Shown: in pieces, positions 668-11,942 of the stretch | Position numbering within the stretch: the first letter of the stretch is position 1 | Layout of the letters: each line of letters opens with the position of its first letter | From: a virus | DNA: 64,000 nt | Direction: 5' to 3' (one strand) | IMG/VR virus record: IMGVR_UViG_3300037264_004923 | Location: 1 to 64,000 of that record | Translations under genes and position numbers: made by a program | The notes under the pieces: model-generated | Database searches by the model: none | What the model was told of the DNA's origin: nothing | Seen by the model: the letters and a program-made list of their open reading frames with translations, nothing else

Positions 668-755
668 GGAAGTAATGGGAGAACTGGCTGATCCCAGCTG
701 CCTGTAAAGCAGTCGTCTTCGGACATTGGAGGTTCGATTCCTTCTACTTCCACCA
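668..755 (+). tRNA. tRNA-Tyr(GTA)
   Basis: Acceptor GGAAGTA/TACTTCC, anticodon loop CTGTAAA, long variable arm, TTCGATT T-loop, encoded CCA. Confidence 0.93.
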
Positions 756-788
756 ACAAAATGGCAAGACATACAAAGGGGTTAGATA

Positions 789-1511
789 ATGCTCTCACTG
801 AGAGAGATCCTACCACAGATCTTCCACGTTCACCTGAAATCTGGGTATGATTTGGCATCCCTGTTCTTACGTTACCAAGAATACTATGAGTCGCCCAATC
901 CACGTTTTCGTGGCCAGATAGGGTGGTCCATCCTCGAGGATTACGCCCCTTGGTATGCTAAGACTTATGGAAAGGGTACCTTCAACTACCATTCTTCGTG
1001 GTCAGGCTTCAATATTCCTGGCACCGTTCTGGACTCTCATTTTCTGGCCGGTAATAGGCCGAGTATACCGGATCTAAGTCGTTACGATCTACTCATGGAG
1101 TCCATCTATTGGATCATACGAGGCGCCCTTCCAGAAGCTGATGCCAAGTTTTATCTTATCGGCACATCCGCCAAGGGCTTCCGTGGAGATGGAGATGTAG
1201 AAGGAGTTCTCTCTCATGAGATTGCCCATGGCCTCTACTATACTACGCCTGCCTATAAAACAGACGTGGAGAAGCTACTTTCGGAGATGGATGCTGATGC
1301 TTTTTCCGCCGCCAAAAAAGTTCTGGCGGACATGGGCTACGATGCGGCCACTCAGGTAGATGAGGTTCACGCCTACGCTTCCACTGGCCTCACAGAGAAG
1401 CTGGAACCCATTCTGACTTCCGAGATCTGCACTCCTTTCTTGGAGAACTTCACACGATGGCTGGAGAAGATGGCGGAGGCAAAACTACATAGTGTTCAAC
1501 AGGAGAGGTAG
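789..1511 (+). CDS. Hypothetical protein with HEXXH motif (putative zincin)
   Basis: HEIAH motif with downstream DEVHAY; stop codon lies inside the next tRNA. Confidence 0.6.
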   Translation: MLSLREILPQIFHVHLKSGYDLASLFLRYQEYYESPNPRFRGQIGWSILEDYAPWYAKTYGKGTFNYHSSWSGFNIPGTVLDSHFLAGNRPSIPDLSRYDLLMESIYWIIRGALPEADAKFYLIGTSAKGFRGDGDVEGVLSHEIAHGLYYTTPAYKTDVEKLLSEMDADAFSAAKKVLADMGYDAATQVDEVHAYASTGLTEKLEPILTSEICTPFLENFTRWLEKMAEAKLHSVQQER

Positions 1512-1591
1512 TCAAGAGGCCGAAGACGCCGCCCTGGAAAGGCGGTATGCGGGTAACCGTATCGCGAGTTCGAATCTCGCCCTCTCCGCCA
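1502..1591 (+). tRNA. tRNA-Ser(GGA)
   Basis: GGAGAGG/CCTCTCC acceptor, CTGGAAA loop, long variable arm, G73 plus CCA. Confidence 0.95.
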
Positions 1592-1602
1592 AGGAAAACC
1601 CC

Positions 1603-1776
1603 ATGGTAAAATCTCCATGTGTCAAGCTCTGTGTGATGAACTTGGAAAAGCAGATGTGCGAAGGCTGCTACCGTACGCAGGAAGAGATCGGTGGATGGCG
1701 GAAGCGTAGCGAGGAAGAGCAACTTGCCATCCTCAAACGCATAGAGGAACGGAAGAAAGGCATCGCAGACAAGTAG
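1603..1776 (+). CDS. DUF1289-like small Cys-rich protein
   Basis: SPCVKLC..CEGCYRTQEEI..W pattern; AAGGA RBS before the ATG at 1603. Confidence 0.8.
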   Translation: MVKSPCVKLCVMNLEKQMCEGCYRTQEEIGGWRKRSEEEQLAILKRIEERKKGIADK

Positions 1777-1867
1777 GAGAGGTGGCAGAGGCTGGCTGAA
1801 TGCACCTGTCTTGAAAACAGGAAAAGCTGAAAGGCTTTCGGGGGTTCGAGTCCCTCCCTCTCCGCCA
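1776..1867 (+). tRNA. tRNA-Ser(TGA)
   Basis: GGAGAGG/CCTCTCC acceptor, CTTGAAA loop, long variable arm, GCCA end. Confidence 0.95.
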
Positions 1868-1955
1868 CGCAAAGGAGACCTATCGAGAAATGACTTGCCG
1901 TAATTTTCGAGGCGGGGAAAATAACTTCCTCACCATTTTATGAAAGGAAAGTATA

Positions 1956-2225
1956 ATGCAACCGCAACCTGATCCCCGTATCCACAAGAACGATTTAGCC
2001 TCCTTCACTTCCAACGGGAAACGCTTCGTGGTAAACGGAAGCCCTGGTGTCCCCAGAAACGCCTGTGTAGAGGAGTTCGACGGAACCCTACGATGTTGGG
2101 CTTCCAAGGAATGGCTGGACGATGCCGCGGCGAACTACGTGCGCGCCAACGCAACCTTCCGACCTGAGAATAACTGCTTCGTTTGGAATGAAGGCGTTCG
2201 GGTTTGGGAAGTGAGAAAGGGGTAG
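1956..2225 (+). CDS. Hypothetical protein
   Basis: ORF with AAAGGA RBS, on the coding strand. Confidence 0.6.
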   Translation: MQPQPDPRIHKNDLASFTSNGKRFVVNGSPGVPRNACVEEFDGTLRCWASKEWLDDAAANYVRANATFRPENNCFVWNEGVRVWEVRKG

Positions 2226-2227
2226 AC

Positions 2228-2389
2228 ATGGAAAAGAAACGCATCGAGTACCTGTTGAATCGCTACGACTTCAGGAAGAAAGAAGTCTCCAACCAGGGCG
2301 CGGAAGGACCCAGCTTCCAAGAAGCGGTTCATGCTCTGGTGGAGTGCTTGGATGAACTGAACACCAGCGACCCTGTCGTGGAGGCGTAG
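2228..2389 (+). CDS. Hypothetical protein
   Basis: ATG 2228 with AAAGGGG RBS, tightly packed between neighbours. Confidence 0.55.
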   Translation: MEKKRIEYLLNRYDFRKKEVSNQGAEGPSFQEAVHALVECLDELNTSDPVVEA

Positions 2390-2391
2390 GG

Positions 2392-2610
2392 ATGCGCTTC
2401 GCTCCAGGTCCCTTGGGTAGGCCGCTGACGCCGCACGAAGAAACTTGTAGCTGCCCTGGTGCCCAAGAAGCCAGGCACAAGGCCGGGAAAAGAAAAGACA
2501 CAGACGACATGCCGCTACTGTGGTGCGATTATGAAGAGTGTGAGATCATCATGCTGCAGTGGATAGCCAAAGATCCAAACTGGAAAGATGGAGAATACGA
2601 TCCTAGATGA
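2392..2610 (+). CDS. Hypothetical small Cys-containing protein
   Basis: Tightly packed ORF with GGAGG RBS. Confidence 0.5.
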   Translation: MRFAPGPLGRPLTPHEETCSCPGAQEARHKAGKRKDTDDMPLLWCDYEECEIIMLQWIAKDPNWKDGEYDPR

Positions 2611-2987
2611 GAAACGGCCCATACCTACTACGAATAGCCCCGAGCGACTATCCTGGAAAGAAATACAGGGATAGGTAAGCCTACGAGCACCACCTCGTGT
2701 GGTGGCAGACTACCGGGGAAGTAATAGATACGGAAACCTTCATCATTCATCACACGAATGAAGACAAGCACGACAACAGGTTCCAGAACCTAGAGAAAAT
2801 GCTGAGAGCGGAGCACTCGAGAGAGCACTCTATGATAGCGGAAACCCGCATCATTGTTTGTGATTGGTGCGGCATAAAGTTCGAGAGAACTCTACGGAAC
2901 ATAAAATCCCATATCAGGGCCGGAGCCAAGCACTCCTTCTGCTGCCGTTCCCACCAAGTTAGATTCCAACAGAAATACCAGAGATAG
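2607..2987 (+). pseudogene. HNH homing endonuclease with in-frame TAA at 2676-2678
   Basis: Frame from ATG 2607 reads MRNGPYLLRIAPSDYPGKKYRDR*AYEHHLVWW...IIHHTNEDKHDNRFQNLE followed by a C-terminal Cys/Zn motif. Confidence 0.8.
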
Positions 2988-2989
2988 AT

Positions 2990-3061
2990 TGGGCAGTACC
3001 ATAACGGCAATGGACCTCCCTGTTAAGGAGTTGTATGTAGGTTCAAATCCTACCTGCCCAG
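2990..3061 (+). tRNA. tRNA-Asn(GTT), no encoded CCA
   Basis: TGGGCAG/CTGCCCA acceptor, CTGTTAA loop, G73. Confidence 0.9.
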
Positions 3062-3094
3062 CAAGTAAAGGAAAAACAAACAAAGGAAAGCCAG

Positions 3095-3292
3095 ATGGAT
3101 GAAAGAGCCCAGAAATACATACAGGAGGTGACGCCGTCGGAGTACCTGAGCGAAGATCCTGTGCTGGAACTGATAGAGTCTCACAAAAGGCAACGACAGA
3201 TAGTCGGAGAAGAAACGGAGAGAAGGTTGAGAGCCCACCAACGGCTGTGGTTCCTGCCGTTTCGTGTTCGACGCTGGCTGCAGGGGTTTTAG
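3095..3292 (+). CDS. Hypothetical protein
   Basis: ORF with AAAGGA RBS. Confidence 0.55.
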   Translation: MDERAQKYIQEVTPSEYLSEDPVLELIESHKRQRQIVGEETERRLRAHQRLWFLPFRVRRWLQGF

Positions 3293-3294
3293 AC

Positions 3295-3810
3295 ATGTAT
3301 GCCCGTCGTAGCAACGAGGTTCGGGGATTCGTGGATTTTCCGATCAACGACCCTGCTTACAAGAACTCAGGGGAAGGAGGCATGTTCGTTCGTCTAGTGG
3401 TCGCGGAGAACGAACCTGATACTTATTGGGGAGTTTGCTGCGGCGGAACTCAGAGTTTTCTCTACGACGAGCTACTTCTGGGAGATGACGTCACCCGAGA
3501 TCTAAGCTTCGAGGAATCTATAGTAGTATCGTCTTCCGAAGGATATCCGTCCGAAAACTTTCACTTTCCTCGCCGACGGGAGGTCTTCAACGAACCACCA
3601 GGTAAGCTGGATCCATACCTCTCCGTTCCCTACCTGAGTATTATCACGCTCGGTACTACAGGGTGGTCCGGTTGGAATGAGAACAGTGTGAAATACTTTC
3701 GCTGCCGATACGAAAATCTAACGGCGGAAGGTAAAGAACTGTACGACATGATCAAGAAGCTGTACGAGGGTAAGGGTACTCTCTACTTACAGACTTGGTT
3801 GGATACATAG
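3295..3810 (+). CDS. Hypothetical protein
   Basis: ATG 3295 directly follows the upstream stop; 171 aa. Confidence 0.65.
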   Translation: MYARRSNEVRGFVDFPINDPAYKNSGEGGMFVRLVVAENEPDTYWGVCCGGTQSFLYDELLLGDDVTRDLSFEESIVVSSSEGYPSENFHFPRRREVFNEPPGKLDPYLSVPYLSIITLGTTGWSGWNENSVKYFRCRYENLTAEGKELYDMIKKLYEGKGTLYLQTWLDT

Positions 3811-3818
3811 AGGTAGGC

Positions 3819-3980
3819 ATGGACGCGGAAGTATTATCAGTGCTGAGCAAGATTTTGAACCATCACCAGAACATCGAGGACCTCTACGAGGCGGATATGG
3901 ATCCTACCTTGAAGTTCCTGAAGATGGGTGAGGAGAACGAAGAGATCGGCAAGTTGGTCATGGAAATCCTGCCGGGATAA
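3819..3980 (+). CDS. Hypothetical protein
   Basis: GAGG RBS, ATG 3819. Confidence 0.55.
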   Translation: MDAEVLSVLSKILNHHQNIEDLYEADMDPTLKFLKMGEENEEIGKLVMEILPG

Positions 3981-3992
3981 AAGGAATACGAC

Positions 3993-4274
3993 ATGGATCT
4001 ACTGAAGCTCCTGGGCAACATCGATCTGAACAAGATCGCAGCCGATGTAATGTCGAAGATGAAGATCCAACCCTTTGACCTTTACTTCGTGGTGGATCAG
4101 CAGCCAAGTACAGGTAAATACGAGTTCCTAGGAATGACCTACACCCACGAAGCTGCCCGACAGCTTGTTGGGCAACAGAGGGACGGACAACAGGTCAAGA
4201 TCCTCAAGATGGAGATGGGAAACGCGGTACGGATAATGAAAGAAATGGGACTGGTTCAGGACGTCAAGGTTTGA
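3993..4274 (+). CDS. Hypothetical protein
   Basis: AAGGA RBS, 93 aa. Confidence 0.65.
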   Translation: MDLLKLLGNIDLNKIAADVMSKMKIQPFDLYFVVDQQPSTGKYEFLGMTYTHEAARQLVGQQRDGQQVKILKMEMGNAVRIMKEMGLVQDVKV

Positions 4275-4299
4275 CATCCGGGCTTGAATGTTCTATCAT
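4271..4299 (+). promoter_or_regulatory. Sigma70-type promoter upstream of the cold-shock gene and tRNAs
   Basis: TTGACA-17 nt-TATCAT. Confidence 0.75.
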
Positions 4300-4383
4300 T
4301 TAGATGTGGGCAGAGTGTTTCAGCCCACGCTAATAAGTGCTGCTATTTCTAGCGGCCAGTAAAAAGGAAAAAGGTAAATTAGT

Positions 4384-4587
4384 ATGGAATTTGGCGTTGT
4401 GAAATTTTTCGATGAGAAGAAAGGTTTTGGTTTTATCACTCCAGATGAGGGTACGAAGGACGTCTTCGTGCATTTTTCTAACATTTCTGCCGAGGGCTTC
4501 CGCACGTTGGAAGAGGGACAGAAGGTAGAATACGAATCGGGTGAAGGTCGCAAAGGACCAGAAGCTCGGAACGTAAAAGCAGTCTGA
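4384..4587 (+). CDS. cspA: Cold-shock domain protein
   Basis: [15 protein letters not shown] (RNP1) and DVFVHFS (RNP2); 67 aa. Confidence 0.97.
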
Positions 4588-4596
4588 TAACAGAAT

Positions 4597-4618
4597 CCCA
4601 GTTCCAGAAGGAACTGGG
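4597..4618 (+). terminator. Hairpin after the csp gene (terminator or processing stem)
   Basis: CCCAGTTCC-AGAA-GGAACTGGG perfect 9-bp stem; weak U tract. Confidence 0.45.
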
Positions 4619-4682
4619 CTTCACAAGGATGTTGCCACATGAGACGCACCGCCGTCCAACTGGGACGGTACAAGTCAAGAAA

Positions 4683-4754
4683 CAGGGCGTAGCGCAGAGG
4701 CAGCGCGTCTGGCCTGGGCCCAGAAAGTCGGAGGTTCGATTCCTCCCGCCCTGA
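4683..4754 (+). tRNA. tRNA-Pro(TGG), C at position 33, no encoded CCA
   Basis: CAGGGCG/CGCCCTG acceptor, TCTGG/CCAGA anticodon stem with loop CCTGGGC. Confidence 0.85.
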
Positions 4755-4766
4755 TAAGTTTCGAAC

Positions 4767-4841
4767 GGTAGCCGTAGTGTAATGGTGGCACGTCAGGTTG
4801 TGACCCTGAAAGAATGGGATCGTTCCCCGTCGGTTACCCCA
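4767..4841 (+). tRNA. tRNA-His(GTG) with G-1
   Basis: 8-bp acceptor GGTAGCCG/CGGTTACC, TTGTGAC loop, atypical T-loop ATCGTTC, CCA. Confidence 0.88.
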
Positions 4842-4870
4842 AAATGTTTCAGAGTAGAGGAATAATTCTA

Positions 4871-4945
4871 GGTCGAGTAGCCAAGAGGCCAAGCAAAAGT
4901 CTGCAAAACTTTCATACGCGGGTTCGACTCCCGCCTCGACTTCCA
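4871..4945 (+). tRNA. tRNA-Cys(GCA)
   Basis: GGTCGAG/CTCGACT acceptor, CTGCAAA loop, U73 plus CCA. Confidence 0.92.
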
Positions 4946-4967
4946 ATCAATAACGGGGAGATTTTCC

Positions 4968-5414
4968 ATGGCTGTTTTCTATCTGGAAGTTCATCAAGAG
5001 GGCGAACTCGTCCTAGACGAGATGCATGCCTCCGAGGAAGGCGCCAAGGTCTCCTTAAGTGCTTTCGTCCACAACTATTGGGACATCGATATTATAGGGA
5101 GGGACCCCTATACCATTTCAGCCAAGGAAGCCATAGCCCTTTTCTTCGATGTCACGGAATTTTCCTCCTACTCTATAACTCCCTACAAACTCCAAGGAGA
5201 AATTCCAGCGGAGGCGCCGGTTCCCCACCCAAACCCGTTTCCGGGCATGGAACCTGTGCCCCTACAAGACGTGGAAGTGAGGATTATCAGCGCCTGCTTG
5301 GCGATGGTGACGCCGGGGATCGTTAGGAAATACATCCAACAGTATTTTGAGCACGATTATCCCATCGAATACGTGCAGAAGGCGCAGGCGGCCGTGATAA
5401 AGAAGATGGAGTAG
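4968..5414 (+). CDS. Hypothetical protein
   Basis: GGGGAG RBS, 148 aa. Confidence 0.65.
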   Translation: MAVFYLEVHQEGELVLDEMHASEEGAKVSLSAFVHNYWDIDIIGRDPYTISAKEAIALFFDVTEFSSYSITPYKLQGEIPAEAPVPHPNPFPGMEPVPLQDVEVRIISACLAMVTPGIVRKYIQQYFEHDYPIEYVQKAQAAVIKKME

Positions 5415-5525
5415 AGATGTATCTCTGGGTCAGATGTCGCAGTACTATCGGGCAATCGAGGGTCGTGAGATTAGCCGTAGCCAAATAAGACCATAGTAGA
5501 AAGGACTCTGAAAAACTGGAGTAGT

Positions 5526-5885
5526 ATGTTCATTCCCGGCGACGTAGCCGCCTATCTTTCCACTCTAGAACCAGGTGCGTTAGTTCAGACACGCTTCTGG
5601 ATTGTGCTTCGAATAAAGAAGCAAGACTTTGGTGACCGACTGGAGATGCATCCTATAATAGACATGATGGTCCCCAAGGATGGCTTCGGGGAGTTCATTG
5701 GCATCGTAAGGAATAGCGACGAGTTATACAATGTTGTCACCCCCGATCCGAAAAAGGATGACGACAAGAAGAGGGACTTCATCTACCTAACCTACAAGGT
5801 TAAGGTACAAGGACAGACGGGCTGGAAGAAGCTGATAGAGTTTCTCGCCCAAAATGAAATGCTGGAAGAAGATCAGGAGCATTGA
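5526..5885 (+). CDS. Hypothetical protein
   Basis: GGAG RBS, 119 aa. Confidence 0.6.
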   Translation: MFIPGDVAAYLSTLEPGALVQTRFWIVLRIKKQDFGDRLEMHPIIDMMVPKDGFGEFIGIVRNSDELYNVVTPDPKKDDDKKRDFIYLTYKVKVQGQTGWKKLIEFLAQNEMLEEDQEH

Positions 5886-5986
5886 TTTAGTACCACCATG
5901 TATACCTACCACAAATGTAGGTGCCAAGTCTGCAAAGATGCCTGGAATACTCTGATCAGAAAGTACAAGCAAAAGGCCAGGAATAA

Positions 5987-6273
5987 GCGCTCTTAGCTCA
6001 ATTGGCAGAGCAGCGGGCTTCAAATAGGAGCCCTTATAGGGAAACCCATAAGGTGAATCCGGTCAAATTCGGGGAACCCCTACAGGAGGCGTCCTAAGGC
6101 AACCCCGAGCCAAGCCCAGACATGGGAAGGTGTAGAGACTTGACGGCCGGGACCTAAAGGCGAAAGCCCATGGTCGTGAGAAAGTCCAGACCAGCAAGCC
6201 GTACAGGTGGCTTGGGAAACCAAGTGCTGGTAAGTTAACCCGTCGGTTGAAGGTTCGACTCCTTCAGGGCGCA
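5987..6273 (+). tRNA. tRNA-Lys(TTT) interrupted by a group I intron
   Basis: 5' exon 5987-6020 (GCGCTCT...GCGGG CT T) and 3' exon 6235-6273 (TT AA CCCGT...AGGGCGC A) join into a canonical cloverleaf with anticodon TTT and A73. Confidence 0.88.
6021..6234 (+). ncRNA. Self-splicing group I intron (IC3-like, 214 nt, no ORF)
   Basis: P1 GGGCTT/GAGCCC with U.G at the splice site; core motifs CAAATTCGGGGAA, GGCAACCCCGAGCCAAGC, AAGGTGTAGAGACT, AAAGTCCAG; terminal G. Confidence 0.92.
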
Positions 6274-6293
6274 TCAGTTCTACGCCGCGTTGA

Positions 6294-6365
6294 AGGCCGT
6301 GAGCCGGCGCTCAAGCGGATCTCCAAAATCTGTTGTCCGAGGATCGACACCTCGACGGCCTGCCA
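6294..6365 (+). tRNA. Non-canonical tRNA with CCA anticodon (Trp), tRNA-Pyl-like fold
   Basis: AGGCCGT/ACGGCCT acceptor, G73, CCA end; D stem GAGC/GCTC with 4-nt loop CGGC and no linker; 6-7 bp anticodon stem; loop CTCCAAA; T arm CGAGG-ATCGACA-CCTCG. Confidence 0.8.
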
Positions 6366-6378
6366 CATAGGAGTACTC

Positions 6379-6525
6379 ATGCAAATCGAAGATCTCGGTA
6401 GAAGTTTGGCAACAATTGTTGTTTGGTCCGCGCCAGCATTTTCTTGTTGGGCGACAGGTTCCCCAGCGGTCGCGTGGGTGTTCCTTCTCTCCTTCATCGC
6501 TACACCAATGATCTGGAGAGACTGA
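6379..6525 (+). CDS. Small hydrophobic (membrane) protein
   Basis: AGGAG RBS, 48 aa, hydrophobic. Confidence 0.55.
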   Translation: MQIEDLGRSLATIVVWSAPAFSCWATGSPAVAWVFLLSFIATPMIWRD

Positions 6526-6529
6526 TTAT

Positions 6530-6605
6530 ACGCGCGTAGCTCAGTGGTAGAGCACTGCGTTTACATCGCAGGTTGTCGCTGGTTCAATCCCAGTCGCGCG
6601 TACCA
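6530..6605 (+). tRNA. tRNA-Val(TAC)
   Basis: ACGCGCG/CGCGCGT acceptor, TTTACAT loop, CCA. Confidence 0.93.
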
Positions 6606-6625
6606 TTTTATTCCACGAGGTATAG

Positions 6626-7141
6626 ATGATTGAGATCGGAGCTCTAAAACTACAGGGAGGCAAGGGGACTATCCCACGCTCCCGTAAAGAAACCAAGACA
6701 GCCCTAAAGAAGTTGGCTGGCGTCTTGGGATTAGAGCTCTGCTTTGTCATTCGCAAAGAGAAAAGCGATTCCTACACGGAAATACCCAACGCAAAAGCGA
6801 TCATCTGCGAGGGAACCAAGAAGGAAGGACTCTTTCCTCGTTGGTTGTTGATCCATTGTGCTCTTCATGAAATGGTGCATTGGATTCAATACAACGAGGG
6901 GTTGTTCAAGGATTACTATCCTCGCCCCTATTACGGGAAGTGGCTCTGGCCATCTCCGCAAGACAGATTACGACTCGCGCTTCGAGCAGAGAGACACTGC
7001 GACTTCTGGGCCAGAAGAATGAGCGATGAGTTCTTTGGTAGCCACCTAAAAGTTGGTGGTACCATATATGACGATCCCATAAAGGGTGCAGCATTTCTCC
7101 GCAAGATGGCGAAGGAGTCCCCTGATCCTATCTTCTCCTAA
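6626..7141 (+). CDS. HEXXH-containing hypothetical protein (putative metallopeptidase)
   Basis: LHEMVHWIQ motif and downstream ERHCD. Confidence 0.6.
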   Translation: MIEIGALKLQGGKGTIPRSRKETKTALKKLAGVLGLELCFVIRKEKSDSYTEIPNAKAIICEGTKKEGLFPRWLLIHCALHEMVHWIQYNEGLFKDYYPRPYYGKWLWPSPQDRLRLALRAERHCDFWARRMSDEFFGSHLKVGGTIYDDPIKGAAFLRKMAKESPDPIFS

Positions 7142-7147
7142 TCTTAT

Positions 7148-7224
7148 GCCCCGGTAGCTCAACGGTTAGAGCAGCGATCTTATTAATCGACGGTTGGTGG
7201 GTTCAAATCCTCCCCGGGGTACCA
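7148..7224 (+). tRNA. tRNA-Ile(TAT)
   Basis: GCCCCGG/CCGGGGT acceptor, CGAT/ATCG stem with loop CTTATTA (anticodon TAT, U at 37), A73 plus CCA. Confidence 0.8.
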
Positions 7225-7253
7225 GAGTCTCAGAAGTAGAGAGTATCTTTCTG

Positions 7254-7333
7254 ACGAGTCGTATAGATCTGAAATCTATACGCACTCACGGTTCAGCAAT
7301 TACGCTGAAACGACGTCGAAAAAGGACGGTGAA
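7254..7333 (+). promoter_or_regulatory. Candidate cis-regulatory three-stem RNA, copy 1 (leader of NadM-NUDIX)
   Basis: AC-GAGT..ACTC-A-CG..CG-A-CGTC..GACG-GTGAA; same architecture as 8239-8300. Confidence 0.6.
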
Positions 7334-7335
7334 CT

Positions 7336-8235
7336 ATGCGAACGATAGAGCAAGCAAAGACAGATGTCGCCGCTATCATAGGACGATGGCAAGTAGACGA
7401 TCTGCATGAGGGACATAGGACCCTCATCAACGAGGTCAAAGCTCAGCATCGAAAGGTGTTGATCTTCGTGGGTGTTCCGGATGTTCTTGGCTGTGTCGAG
7501 AATCCTCTGGACTACCCCACTCGGGCTGCGATGATTCTGCAGCATTACCCAGACGCTGTGGTTCTTCCTCTCCGTGATCAACACTCGGATGAGGACTGGA
7601 GCCGCCTCCTGGATTCTCTGATCCGAACCGCCGCTCCTATCGGAGAGGTAACCCTGTACGGTGGGCGAGATTCTTTCATTCGCCACTACACAGGAAAATT
7701 CAAGACGATCGAACTGGACGCCCTGCGCCACCCAAATGGTACCGAAATCCGAGAGGAGGTCGGTCGGGAGGTGCGGGCGTCTTCTGATTTTAGGGCAGGT
7801 GTAATCTACTCCTCCTTCAATCAGTACAAGCGCGTCCACATGGTCGTAGACATCGCGATCCTCCGTGGGGATAAAGTTCTGCTCATCCAGAAGCCTGGAG
7901 AGAGTACCGTGGGCTTCTGCGGTGGCTTCGTGGATGGTACCGACACCTGCTTGGAGTCTGCAGCTCGAAGGGAAGCCAAGGAAGAGACTGGTATCTTTCC
8001 GGAGACGGTCGAGTATCAAGGAACATTCATCATTCCGGATCGTCGAATGGGAAAGAACGATGTTATGATGTCTGCCTTCTTCATCGGAAAGACCATGACC
8101 AACACGATGATAAAGGTGTGTAAGGAGGAGCTTGCTGGGGCGGAGTGGTATCCGATCGCGGATCTACGCAAGCTCTCCTGGTTTCGAAATCACGTCCCAA
8201 TGTTCGAGGCCCTGTGCAAGAAGCTCGGGGTCTGA
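7336..8235 (+). CDS. nadM: Bifunctional NMN adenylyltransferase / NUDIX (ADP-ribose) hydrolase
   Basis: IGRWQ..LHEGH (HxGH) with NPL motif; C-terminal NUDIX box GGFVD..E.AARREAKEETG. Confidence 0.92.
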   Translation: MRTIEQAKTDVAAIIGRWQVDDLHEGHRTLINEVKAQHRKVLIFVGVPDVLGCVENPLDYPTRAAMILQHYPDAVVLPLRDQHSDEDWSRLLDSLIRTAAPIGEVTLYGGRDSFIRHYTGKFKTIELDALRHPNGTEIREEVGREVRASSDFRAGVIYSSFNQYKRVHMVVDIAILRGDKVLLIQKPGESTVGFCGGFVDGTDTCLESAARREAKEETGIFPETVEYQGTFIIPDRRMGKNDVMMSAFFIGKTMTNTMIKVCKEELAGAEWYPIADLRKLSWFRNHVPMFEALCKKLGV

Positions 8236-8238
8236 GAA

Positions 8239-8300
8239 ACGAGTGGTGATCCTACTCACGTCTGTCTTCGAACAGACGACGCACCTACGGGTGCGGTGAA
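8239..8300 (+). promoter_or_regulatory. Candidate cis-regulatory three-stem RNA, copy 2 (leader of NAMPT)
   Basis: AC-GAGT..ACTC-A-CGTCTGT..ACAGACG-A-CGCACC..GGTGCG-GTGAA. Confidence 0.6.
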
Positions 8301-8310
8301 AGGAAATGCA

Positions 8311-9684
8311 ATGAACAAGCTACTTCTCACGGATTCGTACAAGCTCACACACTGGAAGCAGTACCCCCCAGGAACGGAAAAGGTTTACTCCTACTTCGAA
8401 TCACGGGGCGGACTCTTCGAAGAGACCGTGTTCTTCGGTCTCCAGTATTATCTCCAGAAGTACCTGGCAGGCAGCTTCGTCAGTCTGGATGACGTGTACT
8501 CCGCCGAGTACTTCTGCGAGCAGCACTTCGGACGTCCAGGCCTGTTCAATCGAGAGGGTTGGAACTATATCGCCTGGGAGCATGGCGGAAAACTTCCAGT
8601 TAGCATCAAGGCGGTTCCGGAAGGGACGGCGGTACCCACAGGCAATGTTCTGATGACCATCGAGAACACGGATCCCAAGGTTCCGTGGTTGACCAACTTT
8701 CTCGAGACCATGCTGGTTCAGGTATGGTATCCAATGACGGTTGCCACTTTGTCCCGCGAAATGAAAAAGCTCATTCGTGCCCATCTGGCGAAGAGCGGAG
8801 ATCCGTCTACAATCGACTTCAAGCTCCATGATTTCGGCTTTCGAGGAGTGTCCAGTGTGGAATCCGCCGGGCTTGGTGGGGCAGCGCACCTTGTAAATTT
8901 TCAGGGGACTGACACCCTAGCCGGGATCGTGCTTGCACAGGAGCACTATGGTCTGGGTTTGAAGATGGCAGGGTTCTCTATCCCGGCTTCGGAACACTCT
9001 ACGATTACTTCGTGGGGCAGAGAGCACGAGGCCGATGCATACGAGAATATGCTCACCCAGTTCCCGGATGGTTTGGTTGCCTGTGTCTCAGACTCCTACA
9101 ACATCTTCGACGCATGCTCCTCTCTCTGGGGAGATAAACTCAAAGAGAAGGTACTGGGTAGGAACGGTACCCTCGTGGTACGCCCCGACTCAGGCGATCC
9201 TCCAACAGTGGTGGGTCAGGTTTTGGATGCGCTCGGTGAAAAGTTTGGCTACACCACCAACGCCAAGGGGTTCAAGGTTCTTCCTCCCCAGGTTCGCGTG
9301 ATTCAAGGAGACGGGATCGACTATACGATGACCCGTCAGATTCTGGAAGTCATGAGCCTGAAGGGTTGGGGTGCCGACAACATCGCCTTCGGAATGGGCG
9401 GGGCCCTGCTGCAGAAGCTCGATCGCGACACTCAAAAGTGCGCCTTCAAGTGTGCAGAAGTGGTCGTAAATGGAGAGTCTCGCAAGGTCTCCAAGGACCC
9501 GGTAACCGACCCCGGCAAGCGTTCCAAAGCGGGACGCATGAAGCTGGTGAAAACCGAAAGAGGAGGCTTCACTACAGTAGATGCCGACCTTCAGGTTGAA
9601 GATCAGTTGGTTGAGGTTTTCCGCAACGGAGAAGTCCTGAAGACATATACCTTCGATGAAGTACGGGCACGCGCTGCCCTGTAG
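8311..9684 (+). CDS. nadV: Nicotinamide phosphoribosyltransferase (NAMPT)
   Basis: TDSYKLTH, LHDFGFRGVSS, IPASEHS, VRPDSGD, IQGDGI, FGMGGALLQ motifs. Confidence 0.97.
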   Translation: MNKLLLTDSYKLTHWKQYPPGTEKVYSYFESRGGLFEETVFFGLQYYLQKYLAGSFVSLDDVYSAEYFCEQHFGRPGLFNREGWNYIAWEHGGKLPVSIKAVPEGTAVPTGNVLMTIENTDPKVPWLTNFLETMLVQVWYPMTVATLSREMKKLIRAHLAKSGDPSTIDFKLHDFGFRGVSSVESAGLGGAAHLVNFQGTDTLAGIVLAQEHYGLGLKMAGFSIPASEHSTITSWGREHEADAYENMLTQFPDGLVACVSDSYNIFDACSSLWGDKLKEKVLGRNGTLVVRPDSGDPPTVVGQVLDALGEKFGYTTNAKGFKVLPPQVRVIQGDGIDYTMTRQILEVMSLKGWGADNIAFGMGGALLQKLDRDTQKCAFKCAEVVVNGESRKVSKDPVTDPGKRSKAGRMKLVKTERGGFTTVDADLQVEDQLVEVFRNGEVLKTYTFDEVRARAAL

Positions 9685-9693
9685 GAACAGACG

Positions 9694-10809
9694 ATGAGCG
9701 ATTGGAAGATCGCCCTCCTTCACACCCGCCCGAACACTCTCTTGAAGAGGGTGTTCGAGGCGGCTTTTCCGGGCAGAGTCCGATCGATTCATGCCCCCGC
9801 TCTTCGTAGGGACACCACCTACGAGTATGACGTCTCTCATGGAGAACTACTGGATTACTTCCGCAGGTATGTTCATGACCCTGGTTTCTGGGATGGGCGA
9901 GTACTAACCGTCTACGGAGACGGAGAGTTCCACCACTACACGTATGCACTCACGAAATTGGCGGCGGAACGAAGAGGCTTGGACGGGCCGGAAAGGAACT
10001 GGACTTACTTCCACATTGACAATCATCGAGACGATTGGGGGCGAAGAGCCCCGAACGGCACAACCCAGACCGTAGACTGCGCGAGCTTCGTAGATTCCAT
10101 TGCCTACCATCACGGGGCCGTTCCTTTCTTCGTAGGGCCCGACGCCTATCCTTACAAGGATGCGGTAGGCTATCGAATCCGCGCCGAGGAAATTCCCATC
10201 TACTCCAACTACTTCACGAAGCGCCTGCAAAGAAGCAGGAACTGGGCAGGCATCAAACTCCTCCCGATCACCAGCGGCAACAAGTGGGAGGATGATGCAG
10301 AAGGAAAGGCTGTCGAGTTCACTGGAGGTGAGCTCCCTGCAATCCCCGATCTTCGTGAGACCCCAGCCGAAGCCTATCTCTCCTTCGATCTGGACTATCT
10401 TTCTCCCACGGACATCGTGACGAATTTCCCACAGAATGAACACATCACTACACGGCGTGTGTGTAAGATTCTGGATCGAATCCGCCCCTTCAAGCGTGTA
10501 TTCTCGGCAGACATGCTGGGCTTCCCGGATAGTTGCCGACATCCTCTGTCGGCTCTGACGATGGTGATCTTGGCTAGGAAGGTCATGGGGCTGGGAGTGG
10601 AGAAGCTTCTGCAGTACCAAGACTACGCCAAGCGTCGCCAAGCCCTCTGGATTGGAAACACACACAAGAAGACATTCCAATATACCGGAGCAAACGGAAA
10701 GTTGTGGGCGTCAAAATTCACTGATGACTCGTATCCAGACTTCTACCTCTCAGAACGAGAGAGGAAGTCTCCCATTGAAGAGGGTGAACTCCTGGAAGTT
10801 CTCCGGTAG
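9694..10809 (+). CDS. Arginase/ureohydrolase-fold protein
   Basis: GDGEFHH, HIDNHRD (DxHxD), CASFV and YLSFDLDYL (DxD) metal-binding motifs. Confidence 0.65.
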   Translation: MSDWKIALLHTRPNTLLKRVFEAAFPGRVRSIHAPALRRDTTYEYDVSHGELLDYFRRYVHDPGFWDGRVLTVYGDGEFHHYTYALTKLAAERRGLDGPERNWTYFHIDNHRDDWGRRAPNGTTQTVDCASFVDSIAYHHGAVPFFVGPDAYPYKDAVGYRIRAEEIPIYSNYFTKRLQRSRNWAGIKLLPITSGNKWEDDAEGKAVEFTGGELPAIPDLRETPAEAYLSFDLDYLSPTDIVTNFPQNEHITTRRVCKILDRIRPFKRVFSADMLGFPDSCRHPLSALTMVILARKVMGLGVEKLLQYQDYAKRRQALWIGNTHKKTFQYTGANGKLWASKFTDDSYPDFYLSERERKSPIEEGELLEVLR

Positions 10810-10873
10810 AGAAGTATCAAAACTTTCGGCGGGAAAATAGATTCCCGTCTATCAATGAAAGAGGAAATAGATA

Positions 10874-11827
10874 ATGTCTTCTGGACCGCGTTGGAATGAT
10901 CTCTACACCGATCAACCCACACTGGAATTCGAAGCGAGCGTTCGGTATCGGGGACAGAACAGTCGAGTAGACTCCGAGGGTAGGGATTGCCGTGAAGCTC
11001 TGATCTACGACATCGGAGACTGGATGGGACAGCTCACAGTCGCCGACGTGAACGAAGAAGACGAGTACGATCCTACGCCTTGGAAGAAAAAGAAAGCAGA
11101 TCTCAAGCCGTCCCCTCCGTCCAAGCACAAGATTGAGCTGAACGTGGAATCTCTCCGGCAAGCCGGGAGTACGAAGCTCACCCTCTATGTCGATGAAGAC
11201 AACATGTGCATGCGAGAATGCTGCCGAGGAAATTTGGTACATACACTCAATTCCCTAGTGTCTCTTCCCGGCCTGCTTCTCAATCCGGATAGATACACAG
11301 GGGATTGGTGGGAGCAGACCGAAGAGCAGATATTTCAGAGGATGAGCAAGCATAAACTTGGGTATTACGGAAACCCTGTTTTCGAGTACTGGGGTGCCGA
11401 CAACTCCATCCTTCAACATCCGGCCCTTGTCTCCATTACGTTCGGCTTATTCCGCCAAGCAGTAGATCTACACACACATGGAATGGCTGACGAACTTACA
11501 AAAGTGGTTTCTCCAAGAGAAGTTCGTACCGCCCTGTTCAACTCTAACGAGAAGGCAGCGCTGAAACTCGTACAGAAAATCAAGCCCTGGCTGTACCGTC
11601 CAACAACGAACACATACTTTCCTCTCAGCGGGCCGGGAAAGTGGGAGCTTTTCCTGAATCTTCACAAGGCTCTCTACAAGCACGGGTTCAAGGCCGTGTT
11701 CGGTGAGGTTGAGGATGCTTGGCAACTTGCATCCCGAGGAATCAAGAACCTCAACGGCTCACATACCTACTTTCAGAACAGAACGAAGGTAGAGAACGTG
11801 AATAGGTTGGCCGCAAAAGCAGCCTGA
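10874..11827 (+). CDS. Divergent COOH-NH2 ligase type 2-like protein
   Basis: FEYWGADNSILQHPAL aligns by eye with FEYRVLSGLWLVHPAL of 28065-29330; paralog of 11943-12950. Confidence 0.5.
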   Translation: MSSGPRWNDLYTDQPTLEFEASVRYRGQNSRVDSEGRDCREALIYDIGDWMGQLTVADVNEEDEYDPTPWKKKKADLKPSPPSKHKIELNVESLRQAGSTKLTLYVDEDNMCMRECCRGNLVHTLNSLVSLPGLLLNPDRYTGDWWEQTEEQIFQRMSKHKLGYYGNPVFEYWGADNSILQHPALVSITFGLFRQAVDLHTHGMADELTKVVSPREVRTALFNSNEKAALKLVQKIKPWLYRPTTNTYFPLSGPGKWELFLNLHKALYKHGFKAVFGEVEDAWQLASRGIKNLNGSHTYFQNRTKVENVNRLAAKAA

Positions 11828-11834
11828 ACTACTT

Positions 11835-11917
11835 GGGCGGGTGGTGTAATGGCAGCCACGAGGGACTTAAAATCCCTTGCTCGTAAGAGCGTACGGGTTC
11901 GAGTCCCGTCCCGCCTA
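11835..11917 (+). tRNA. tRNA-Leu(TAA), no encoded CCA
   Basis: GGGCGGG/CCCGCCT acceptor, CTTAAAA loop, long variable arm, A73. Confidence 0.93.
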
Positions 11918-11942
11918 CTACTCTTGAGTTAGGAGTTAGATT

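Follow-up and report, generated by a model that had tools for sequence, protein, structure and literature searches.

What is the structured RNA that stands before both NAD salvage genes of this phage, and how might it control them? The DNA analysed here, called the window, comprises the opening 64 kb of IMG/VR virus record G000 (101,763 b; CheckV completeness 34 %), which is a fragment of a jumbo phage. It carries nadM and nadV, the NARP2 pair of phage counter-defence, and an initial annotation made from the sequence alone had placed the same three-stem RNA motif upstream of each gene. NAD-rebuilding genes serve phages as counter-defence, and NARP2 over-produces NAD+ and drains PRPP (bioRxiv 10.1101/2024.02.11.579819). 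The drain on PRPP makes NARP2 costly, so that, together with the over-production of NAD+, it gives tight control a reason. NAD+ reconstitution is a recently discovered form of counter-defence, and to our knowledge nothing is known about the control of the NARP1 or NARP2 genes.

The NAD module and its two leaders

The module and the parts of its two leaders, c1 and c2, are as follows (window coordinates).

7148..7224, + strand: tRNA-Ile(UAU), context just upstream of c1 and outside the motif
7254..7333, + strand: leader c1 (nadM type), three hairpins and the GUGAA tail
7256..7287, + strand: c1 hairpin H1, invariant base GAG(U)/(A)CUC, long variable distal stem, loop CUGAA (from the pair table)
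7289..7312, + strand: c1 hairpin H2, base pairs C-G and G-C, variable distal stem, loop AAUUAC
7314..7328, + strand: c1 hairpin H3 (CGUC/GACG), with an SD-like AAAGGA within the loop and 3' arm
7329..7333, + strand: c1 tail GUGAA, invariant and single-stranded
7336..8235, + strand: nadM-Nudix (bifunctional NMN adenylyltransferase/Nudix), 299 aa, Pfam NUDIX
8239..8300, + strand: leader c2 (nadV type), beginning 3 nt past the nadM stop codon
8241..8257, + strand: c2 hairpin H1, six pairs, one of them G-U
8259..8278, + strand: c2 hairpin H2, seven pairs
8280..8295, + strand: c2 hairpin H3, six pairs, loop UACG
8296..8300, + strand: c2 tail GUGAA, followed at once by the SD AGGA and then by AUG at 8311
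8311..9684, + strand: nadV (nicotinamide phosphoribosyltransferase), 457 aa, Pfam NAMPT_N and NAPRTase, NCBIfam NF006629 at 611 bits
9694..10809, + strand: third module gene, a conserved 371-aa ORF without a Pfam match and without a leader, after a 9-nt gap past nadV

The nadM product matched the NCBIfam bifunctional NMNAT/Nudix models below cut-off, and its relatives are so named by JGI. Ten tRNA genes are clustered around the NAD module (window 668-11918), and a group I intron (Rfam Intron_gpI, 54 bits) lies within a tRNA gene at 6010-6203.

The sequences and coordinates of both leaders are as the initial annotation gave them, and the three-stem motif that it described before the two NAD genes is real. 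In each copy the minimum-energy fold consists of three adjacent hairpins, joined by single-A linkers and ending in GUGAA. Fold energies for c1 and c2 were -29.8 and -28.1 kcal/mol, with z-scores against dinucleotide shuffles of -5.1 and -3.5, respectively. The three-hairpin fold comprised 43-51 % of the predicted ensemble of these two copies and was kept when 20 nt of upstream and 45 nt of coding sequence were added. The 64-kb window has exactly two matches to the pattern ACGAGT-N(5-35)-ACTCACG, at 7254 and 8239, where 0.05 were expected from shuffled sequence, and the full record of 101,763 b contains just two matches to the leader core pattern.

No sigma-70-like promoters, terminators or U-tracts after the hairpins were found nearby (7254-8310), and in each leader H3 is followed by GUGAA. 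An intrinsic terminator or attenuator was rejected for the same interval, as a GC-rich hairpin with a U-tract was not found there. Together with the position of c2 and of two further copies (c3 and c4, below), each of which starts at the stop codon of the gene upstream, this makes translational control on a polycistronic RNA the simplest reading. Four sediment metatranscriptome runs from one 2025 study (X2-X5) contain 87-100 % of the sampled words of 7140-8420; this presence may be DNA carry-over.

Further copies in related jumbo phages

Five copies of the leader were found in three jumbo phages: c1 and c2 in G000, two (c3, c4) in G001 and one (c5) in G002. The three genomes share ~67 % nucleotide identity over 20-42 % of their length, and a whole-genome descriptor scan of all three returned only these five credible copies. 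G001 is a complete phage of 295,848 b with the closest NadM relative in IMG/VR (62 % identity). Its motif occurs exactly twice, before nadM and before nadV, and its NadV is 72 % identical to that of the window. Between the two genes G001 carries a 283-aa radical-SAM-like ORF (L202:3898-4749; Pfam PF04055, below cut-off), which begins right at the nadM stop codon and lacks a leader. The leader thus stays with nadV despite the inserted gene, and the upstream neighbours of the copies vary between a tRNA, unrelated ORFs and nadM. This indicates that the motif follows the downstream and not the upstream gene. An 8-mer, CTCGGGGT, lies 13-24 nt upstream of both c2 (at 8221-8228, in the nadM C-terminus) and c3 (at L202 ~2897-2904, inside an unrelated ORF), and may be there by chance.

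G002 (297,725 b; CheckV completeness 100 %) was found by a scan for the nadM-type 3' half and holds a single copy. Here the leader heads a 286-aa PRPS-like gene that scores under all NCBIfam Prs cut-offs and is of the size of Adps. Two nucleotides after this Adps-like gene begins a 495-aa protein that matched PDB 9W5X at E 1.7e-141, compared with ~1e-57 for Nampt. PDB 9W5X is the solved Namat of SPbetaL1 (PMC12774641, PMC13586617). By homology the pair is thus identified as a NARP1-type operon. Searches of the full sequences by tblastn found nadM absent from G002 and the Adps-like gene absent from G000 and G001. The NARP1 pair (L327:2405-4755; G002:18404-20754) occupies the position at which the relatives have nadM-nadV, and the locus is syntenic with those of G000 and G001, with a remnant of the third gene just after namat and then two ligase-like paralogs. 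The third-gene ORF is 58-63 % identical in G001 (L202:6235-6894) and is kept in G002 only as a 20-22-aa N-terminal remnant (L327:4770-4835); it may be functionally tied to NARP2. The G002 locus is a natural cassette swap between NARP2 and NARP1, whose breakpoints fall at the leader and within the third gene.

All five copies therefore head NAD genes, and the linkage claimed in the initial annotation holds beyond the window. Linkage to functionally related but non-homologous genes, here those of NARP2 and NARP1, is a classic riboswitch signature. The leader shows this trait, though the loci are syntenic, and the G002 copy could be an inherited leader kept past the cassette swap and not an independent recruitment. 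That the leader persists through the pathway swap suggests that control depends on NAD state and not on which enzyme is encoded.

Two additional exact-core scans of IMG/VR gave no real further copy, and all 118 matches listed from the first wide-gap pattern scan were random. Pattern matches at L323-L325 and L328 were rejected as chance, having no three-hairpin fold. The Adps-like protein of G002, used as a query against IMG/VR, found only itself. The ~28 closest NadM relatives (P0001-P0028) have 55-93 % identity. A dedicated search of IMG/VR for close NadM relatives gave none, and GenBank phages have only distant ones (<=45 % identity; Tunturi_5, LR7565xx), the leaders of which are unrelated. 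Among the matches listed from a metagenome scan with the NadM alignment there were generic Nudix peptides and no close relative, and a genome-contig scan with back-translated GRWQVDDLH gave three chance matches and no NadM.

Anatomy and conservation of the leader RNA

The same three-hairpin minimum-energy fold was obtained for all five copies, in which 19 nt are invariant: GAG..CUC at the base of H1, an A, C..G at the base of H2, a second A, CG..CG at the base of H3, and GUGAA. Of the identical junction nucleotides noted in the initial annotation, this core stood, while the 5' AC did not, as the 5' dinucleotide of the five copies reads AC, AC, GC, AC and AA. H1 spans 17-32 nt; from copy to copy its distal part shows no sequence relationship, but it is paired in every one. 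Pair 2 of H2 is G-C in three copies and A-U in the other two, and pairs 3 and 4 of H3 are U-A and C-G in the nadM/adps type compared with C-G and A-U in the nadV type. Between the orthologous copies c3 and c5, the distal part of H2 has changed from G-C to A-U, from A-U to G-C and from C-G to U-G with pairing kept. Compensatory changes across five copies thus bear out the earlier observation that the stems differ and still pair. Pairs were counted by a script on each copy's own fold, because MAFFT failed to align the copies structurally and the covariance model (R1) mis-registers c1. Covariation statistics are weak, since just five copies are available, all of them from a single phage clade, and the orthologous copies share ancestry. 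The combination of a conserved core, variable peripheral stems and covariation, which is a generic riboswitch trait, is present in these five sequences of one clade.

A functionless relic, in the form of a drifting duplicated leader, or a self-cleaving ribozyme is very improbable. The clade is small and paralogous copies could come from an old duplication; however, 19 of 19 core positions were kept in five copies while the rest changed, in genomes that are ~67 % identical. A ribozyme could be read from the weak hammerhead-like CUGACGAG upstream of c1 (E 8.3), but the hammerhead core is missing in copies 2-5 and no ribozyme family matches. The candidate itself (Hammerhead_1, 14 bits, 7245-7407) was rejected on the absence of CUGANGA ... 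GAAA from those copies. With this weak hammerhead excepted, cmscan gave no Rfam family match to the leaders, either in the window at the gathering threshold or in 7100-8400 at E up to 10. The three-hairpin leader is a conserved, gene-specific, structured RNA without an Rfam family.

G-U pairs occur in four of the five copies, and in every copy the sense strand gives a more stable fold than its complement, by 1-8.6 kcal/mol, which points to an RNA rather than a DNA element. This bears on whether the leader could be a DNA-level site, either a repressor operator, for NrtR or the like, or a promoter used by an RNA polymerase of the phage itself. Rodionov reportedly described in 2008 that bacterial nadM-nadV operons are often under NrtR boxes. 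The NrtR regulon resembles the present case in the coordinate control of a nadM-nadV pair, and each hairpin is an inverted repeat in DNA. NrtR boxes, however, are fixed-length DNA palindromes, whereas the leader has variable spacing, covarying stems and G-U pairs. The spacers between its conserved blocks vary widely, as H1 alone illustrates, its palindrome arms are not conserved, it has no palindrome of fixed length as an NrtR operator would, and the flanking ORFs are not conserved either. With the G-U pairs and the strand asymmetry also favouring RNA, a DNA-level site is highly unlikely.

Conservation was also seen at closer range. Contigs ~90 % identical to the window, from runs X6, X7 and X9 of three unrelated metagenome studies, cover c1. 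Among the variants listed, differences found in at least two runs lay, within c1, only in the H1 end loop (7270, 7272), with others in the spacer at 7334-7335, compared with ~9 % differences in the next 240 nt of coding sequence in the same runs. In X6 and X7 the upstream context differs from that of the window and homology starts at 7231. The first 14 codons of nadM (7336-7377) were without shared differences in these relatives, among the variants listed, and at the protein level 20 NadM relatives share the N-terminus MRTxEQAKTD almost without variation. RNA-level constraint may reach into the coding start of nadM.

The distance from the end of the leader to the start codon is 2-12 nt. In the nadM/adps type, AAGGA lies in the H3 loop and 3' arm and GGUGA stands 3-6 nt before AUG; nadV-type copies have an SD (AGGA or AGGAG) that begins one base past the tail. 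The claim that stem 3 overlaps the AAAGGA Shine-Dalgarno sequence is true of c1 and of the two orthologous copies in the relatives, whereas the SD of c2 follows GUGAA. In c1 the tail and the G before it form an SD-like GGUGA 3 nt before AUG, a function that we infer from the known 16S 3' end. The tail and the ribosome-binding site adjoin the junction, so that direct occlusion is possible. No alternative pairing of the kind expected of an expression platform was common to the copies; the predicted ensemble is dominated by the three hairpins, and the ribosome-binding site is moderately open. Nor was a conserved pseudoknot or pairing of the tail detected: UCAC/GUGA amounts to no more than 4 bp, and the c2 tail pairs with coding sequence in a way that the copies do not share.

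Other NAD loci and the control of translation

The motif was absent from 80 phage nadV loci (54-62 % amino acid identity) and 60 nadM loci searched by fuzzy pattern, descriptor and covariance model R1, and R1, built on the three-hairpin form, matched none of ~148 other nadV/nadM loci. About 20 of the other loci examined have a different leader directly before nadV and nadM, consisting of a hairpin with a GAUAGAC loop and an SD hairpin (L018, L021, L022, L031, L034, L036, L038, L042-L048, L056, L059, L061, L064, L067, L072, L076 and L078). This two-hairpin leader is in no Rfam family and in no paper among the literature searched, in which no RNA leader of phage nadM, nadV or NARP genes was described. 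It resembles the leader studied here in being a short sense-strand leader of nadM and nadV, usually with a copy for each of the two genes, that ends at the ribosome-binding site and has its SD within or beside the last hairpin; the two likely do the same job. The architectures differ: one hairpin with a 7-nt loop plus an SD hairpin, compared with three hairpins, a conserved junction and GUGAA in c1-c5. No hairpin with a GAYAGAC loop was found at c1-c5, and no hairpins with a GGUGAA loop adjoin NAD genes in the other loci. Only the three-hairpin form, and not the GAUAGAC leader, was seen before a NARP1 operon.

The known NAD+ riboswitches offer a second comparison. NAD+-I (nadA motif) and NAD+-II (pnuC motif) are likewise 5' leaders of NAD-metabolism genes. 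In the model of NAD+-I, tandem bulged stems hold a conserved internal loop; NAD+-II is a pseudoknot enclosing the SD. Both differ from the leader in fold, and they are bacterial and linked to de novo synthesis or transport genes, while the present genes are phage genes of salvage and reconstitution. The view in the initial annotation that the motif is neither of these agrees with cmscan, in which neither covariance model matched even at E up to 10. The NAD+-II riboswitch acts at the ribosome-binding site (PMC7749635).

The reading that we prefer, tentatively and as short of probable, is that the leader is a cis-acting, metabolite-sensing element of translational control on the NAD-reconstitution mRNA. 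The basal pairs and the GUGAA tail would form a compact junction inside the ribosome footprint and so set how often the gene downstream is translated. A metabolite common to both pathways would bind this junction; candidates are NAD+, the product, and nicotinamide and ADP-ribose, which would signal that NAD+ has been cleaved. Binding would fix or free the tail together with the ribosome-binding site next to it. For the nadM/adps type this site has the SD-like GGUGA and AAGGA, located in the tail and in hairpin 3; for the nadV type it has the SD one base past the tail. The phage would thereby match costly enzymes to the NAD state of the cell. Metabolite sensing is preferred because the junction is conserved with free peripheral stems and because two non-homologous pathways are linked to the leader. 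The NARP1 and NARP2 pathways share NAD+, nicotinamide, ATP and ADP-ribose, and do not share their first enzymes. Against an aptamer, three hairpins without an enclosing helix would be an unusual design.

The same structural and linkage evidence applies to a translational operator read by a protein, in which a phage or host RNA-binding protein would sit on the junction and tail and block the 30S subunit; this is possible, though we would not call it probable. Protein-read operators, such as those of T4 gene 43 and regA, of the MS2 coat protein on the replicase start and of E. coli thrS, are alike in being small structured RNAs at or abutting the SD and AUG of one or a few genes. Their readers, however, are known and are often the encoded protein, whereas here the first protein differs between phages (NadM or Adps-like), and classic autogenous control by the first gene does not fit for this reason. 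The initial annotation had proposed the NadM-Nudix protein as one reader; this is now disfavoured because G002 has an intact leader and no nadM, so that NadM-Nudix cannot be the reader common to all copies. The reader could possibly be a Nampt-family protein (NadV or Namat), as the sole enzyme family common to the three phages: a gene of this family is present in all three genomes, but NadV and Namat share only 32 % identity. Having no alternative pairing, the fold looks constitutive, as would suit a bound factor that occludes the site, and the different leaders of other phages at the same genes fit lineage-specific proteins and operators. Conversely, conservation in helix bases and linkers and not in a hairpin loop is less typical of simple protein operators, and no candidate RNA-binding gene is conserved beside the module.

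A non-sensing, constitutive element would also suit hairpins that are stable and dominant. Such an element would keep expression fixed by stabilising the mRNA, by insulating cistrons from each other, as a site of processing, or by serving as an enhancer of translation or a standby site. Copies lie between cistrons directly past stop codons, and GGUGA and AAGGA are SD-like. A stabiliser or insulator would, however, be expected at many genes, whereas there are one or two copies per genome, all at NAD genes. The linker A's are invariant, as is the nadV-type tail even though it is not an SD, which implies specific recognition. This explanation is accordingly unlikely.

Metabolite sensing, the reading preferred above, also has a more specific form: a third and structurally new class of NAD-related riboswitch, the first in viruses, that senses NAD+ or ADP-ribose/nicotinamide and gates both NARP1 and NARP2. 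This is plausible but doubtful as it stands. At 62-67 nt the leader can be synthesised and tested directly for binding of a ligand or protein.

What is new is a small three-hairpin leader directly ahead of the start codons in two NAD-rebuilding pathways that are unrelated to each other, most likely a dedicated expression switch. Together with the GAUAGAC leader it indicates that two or more RNA architectures serve the same regulatory task, like the multiple riboswitch classes that exist per ligand. If the leader is an NAD-sensing viral riboswitch, counter-defence in these phages would be switched by whether the NAD-depleting immunity of the host has fired.
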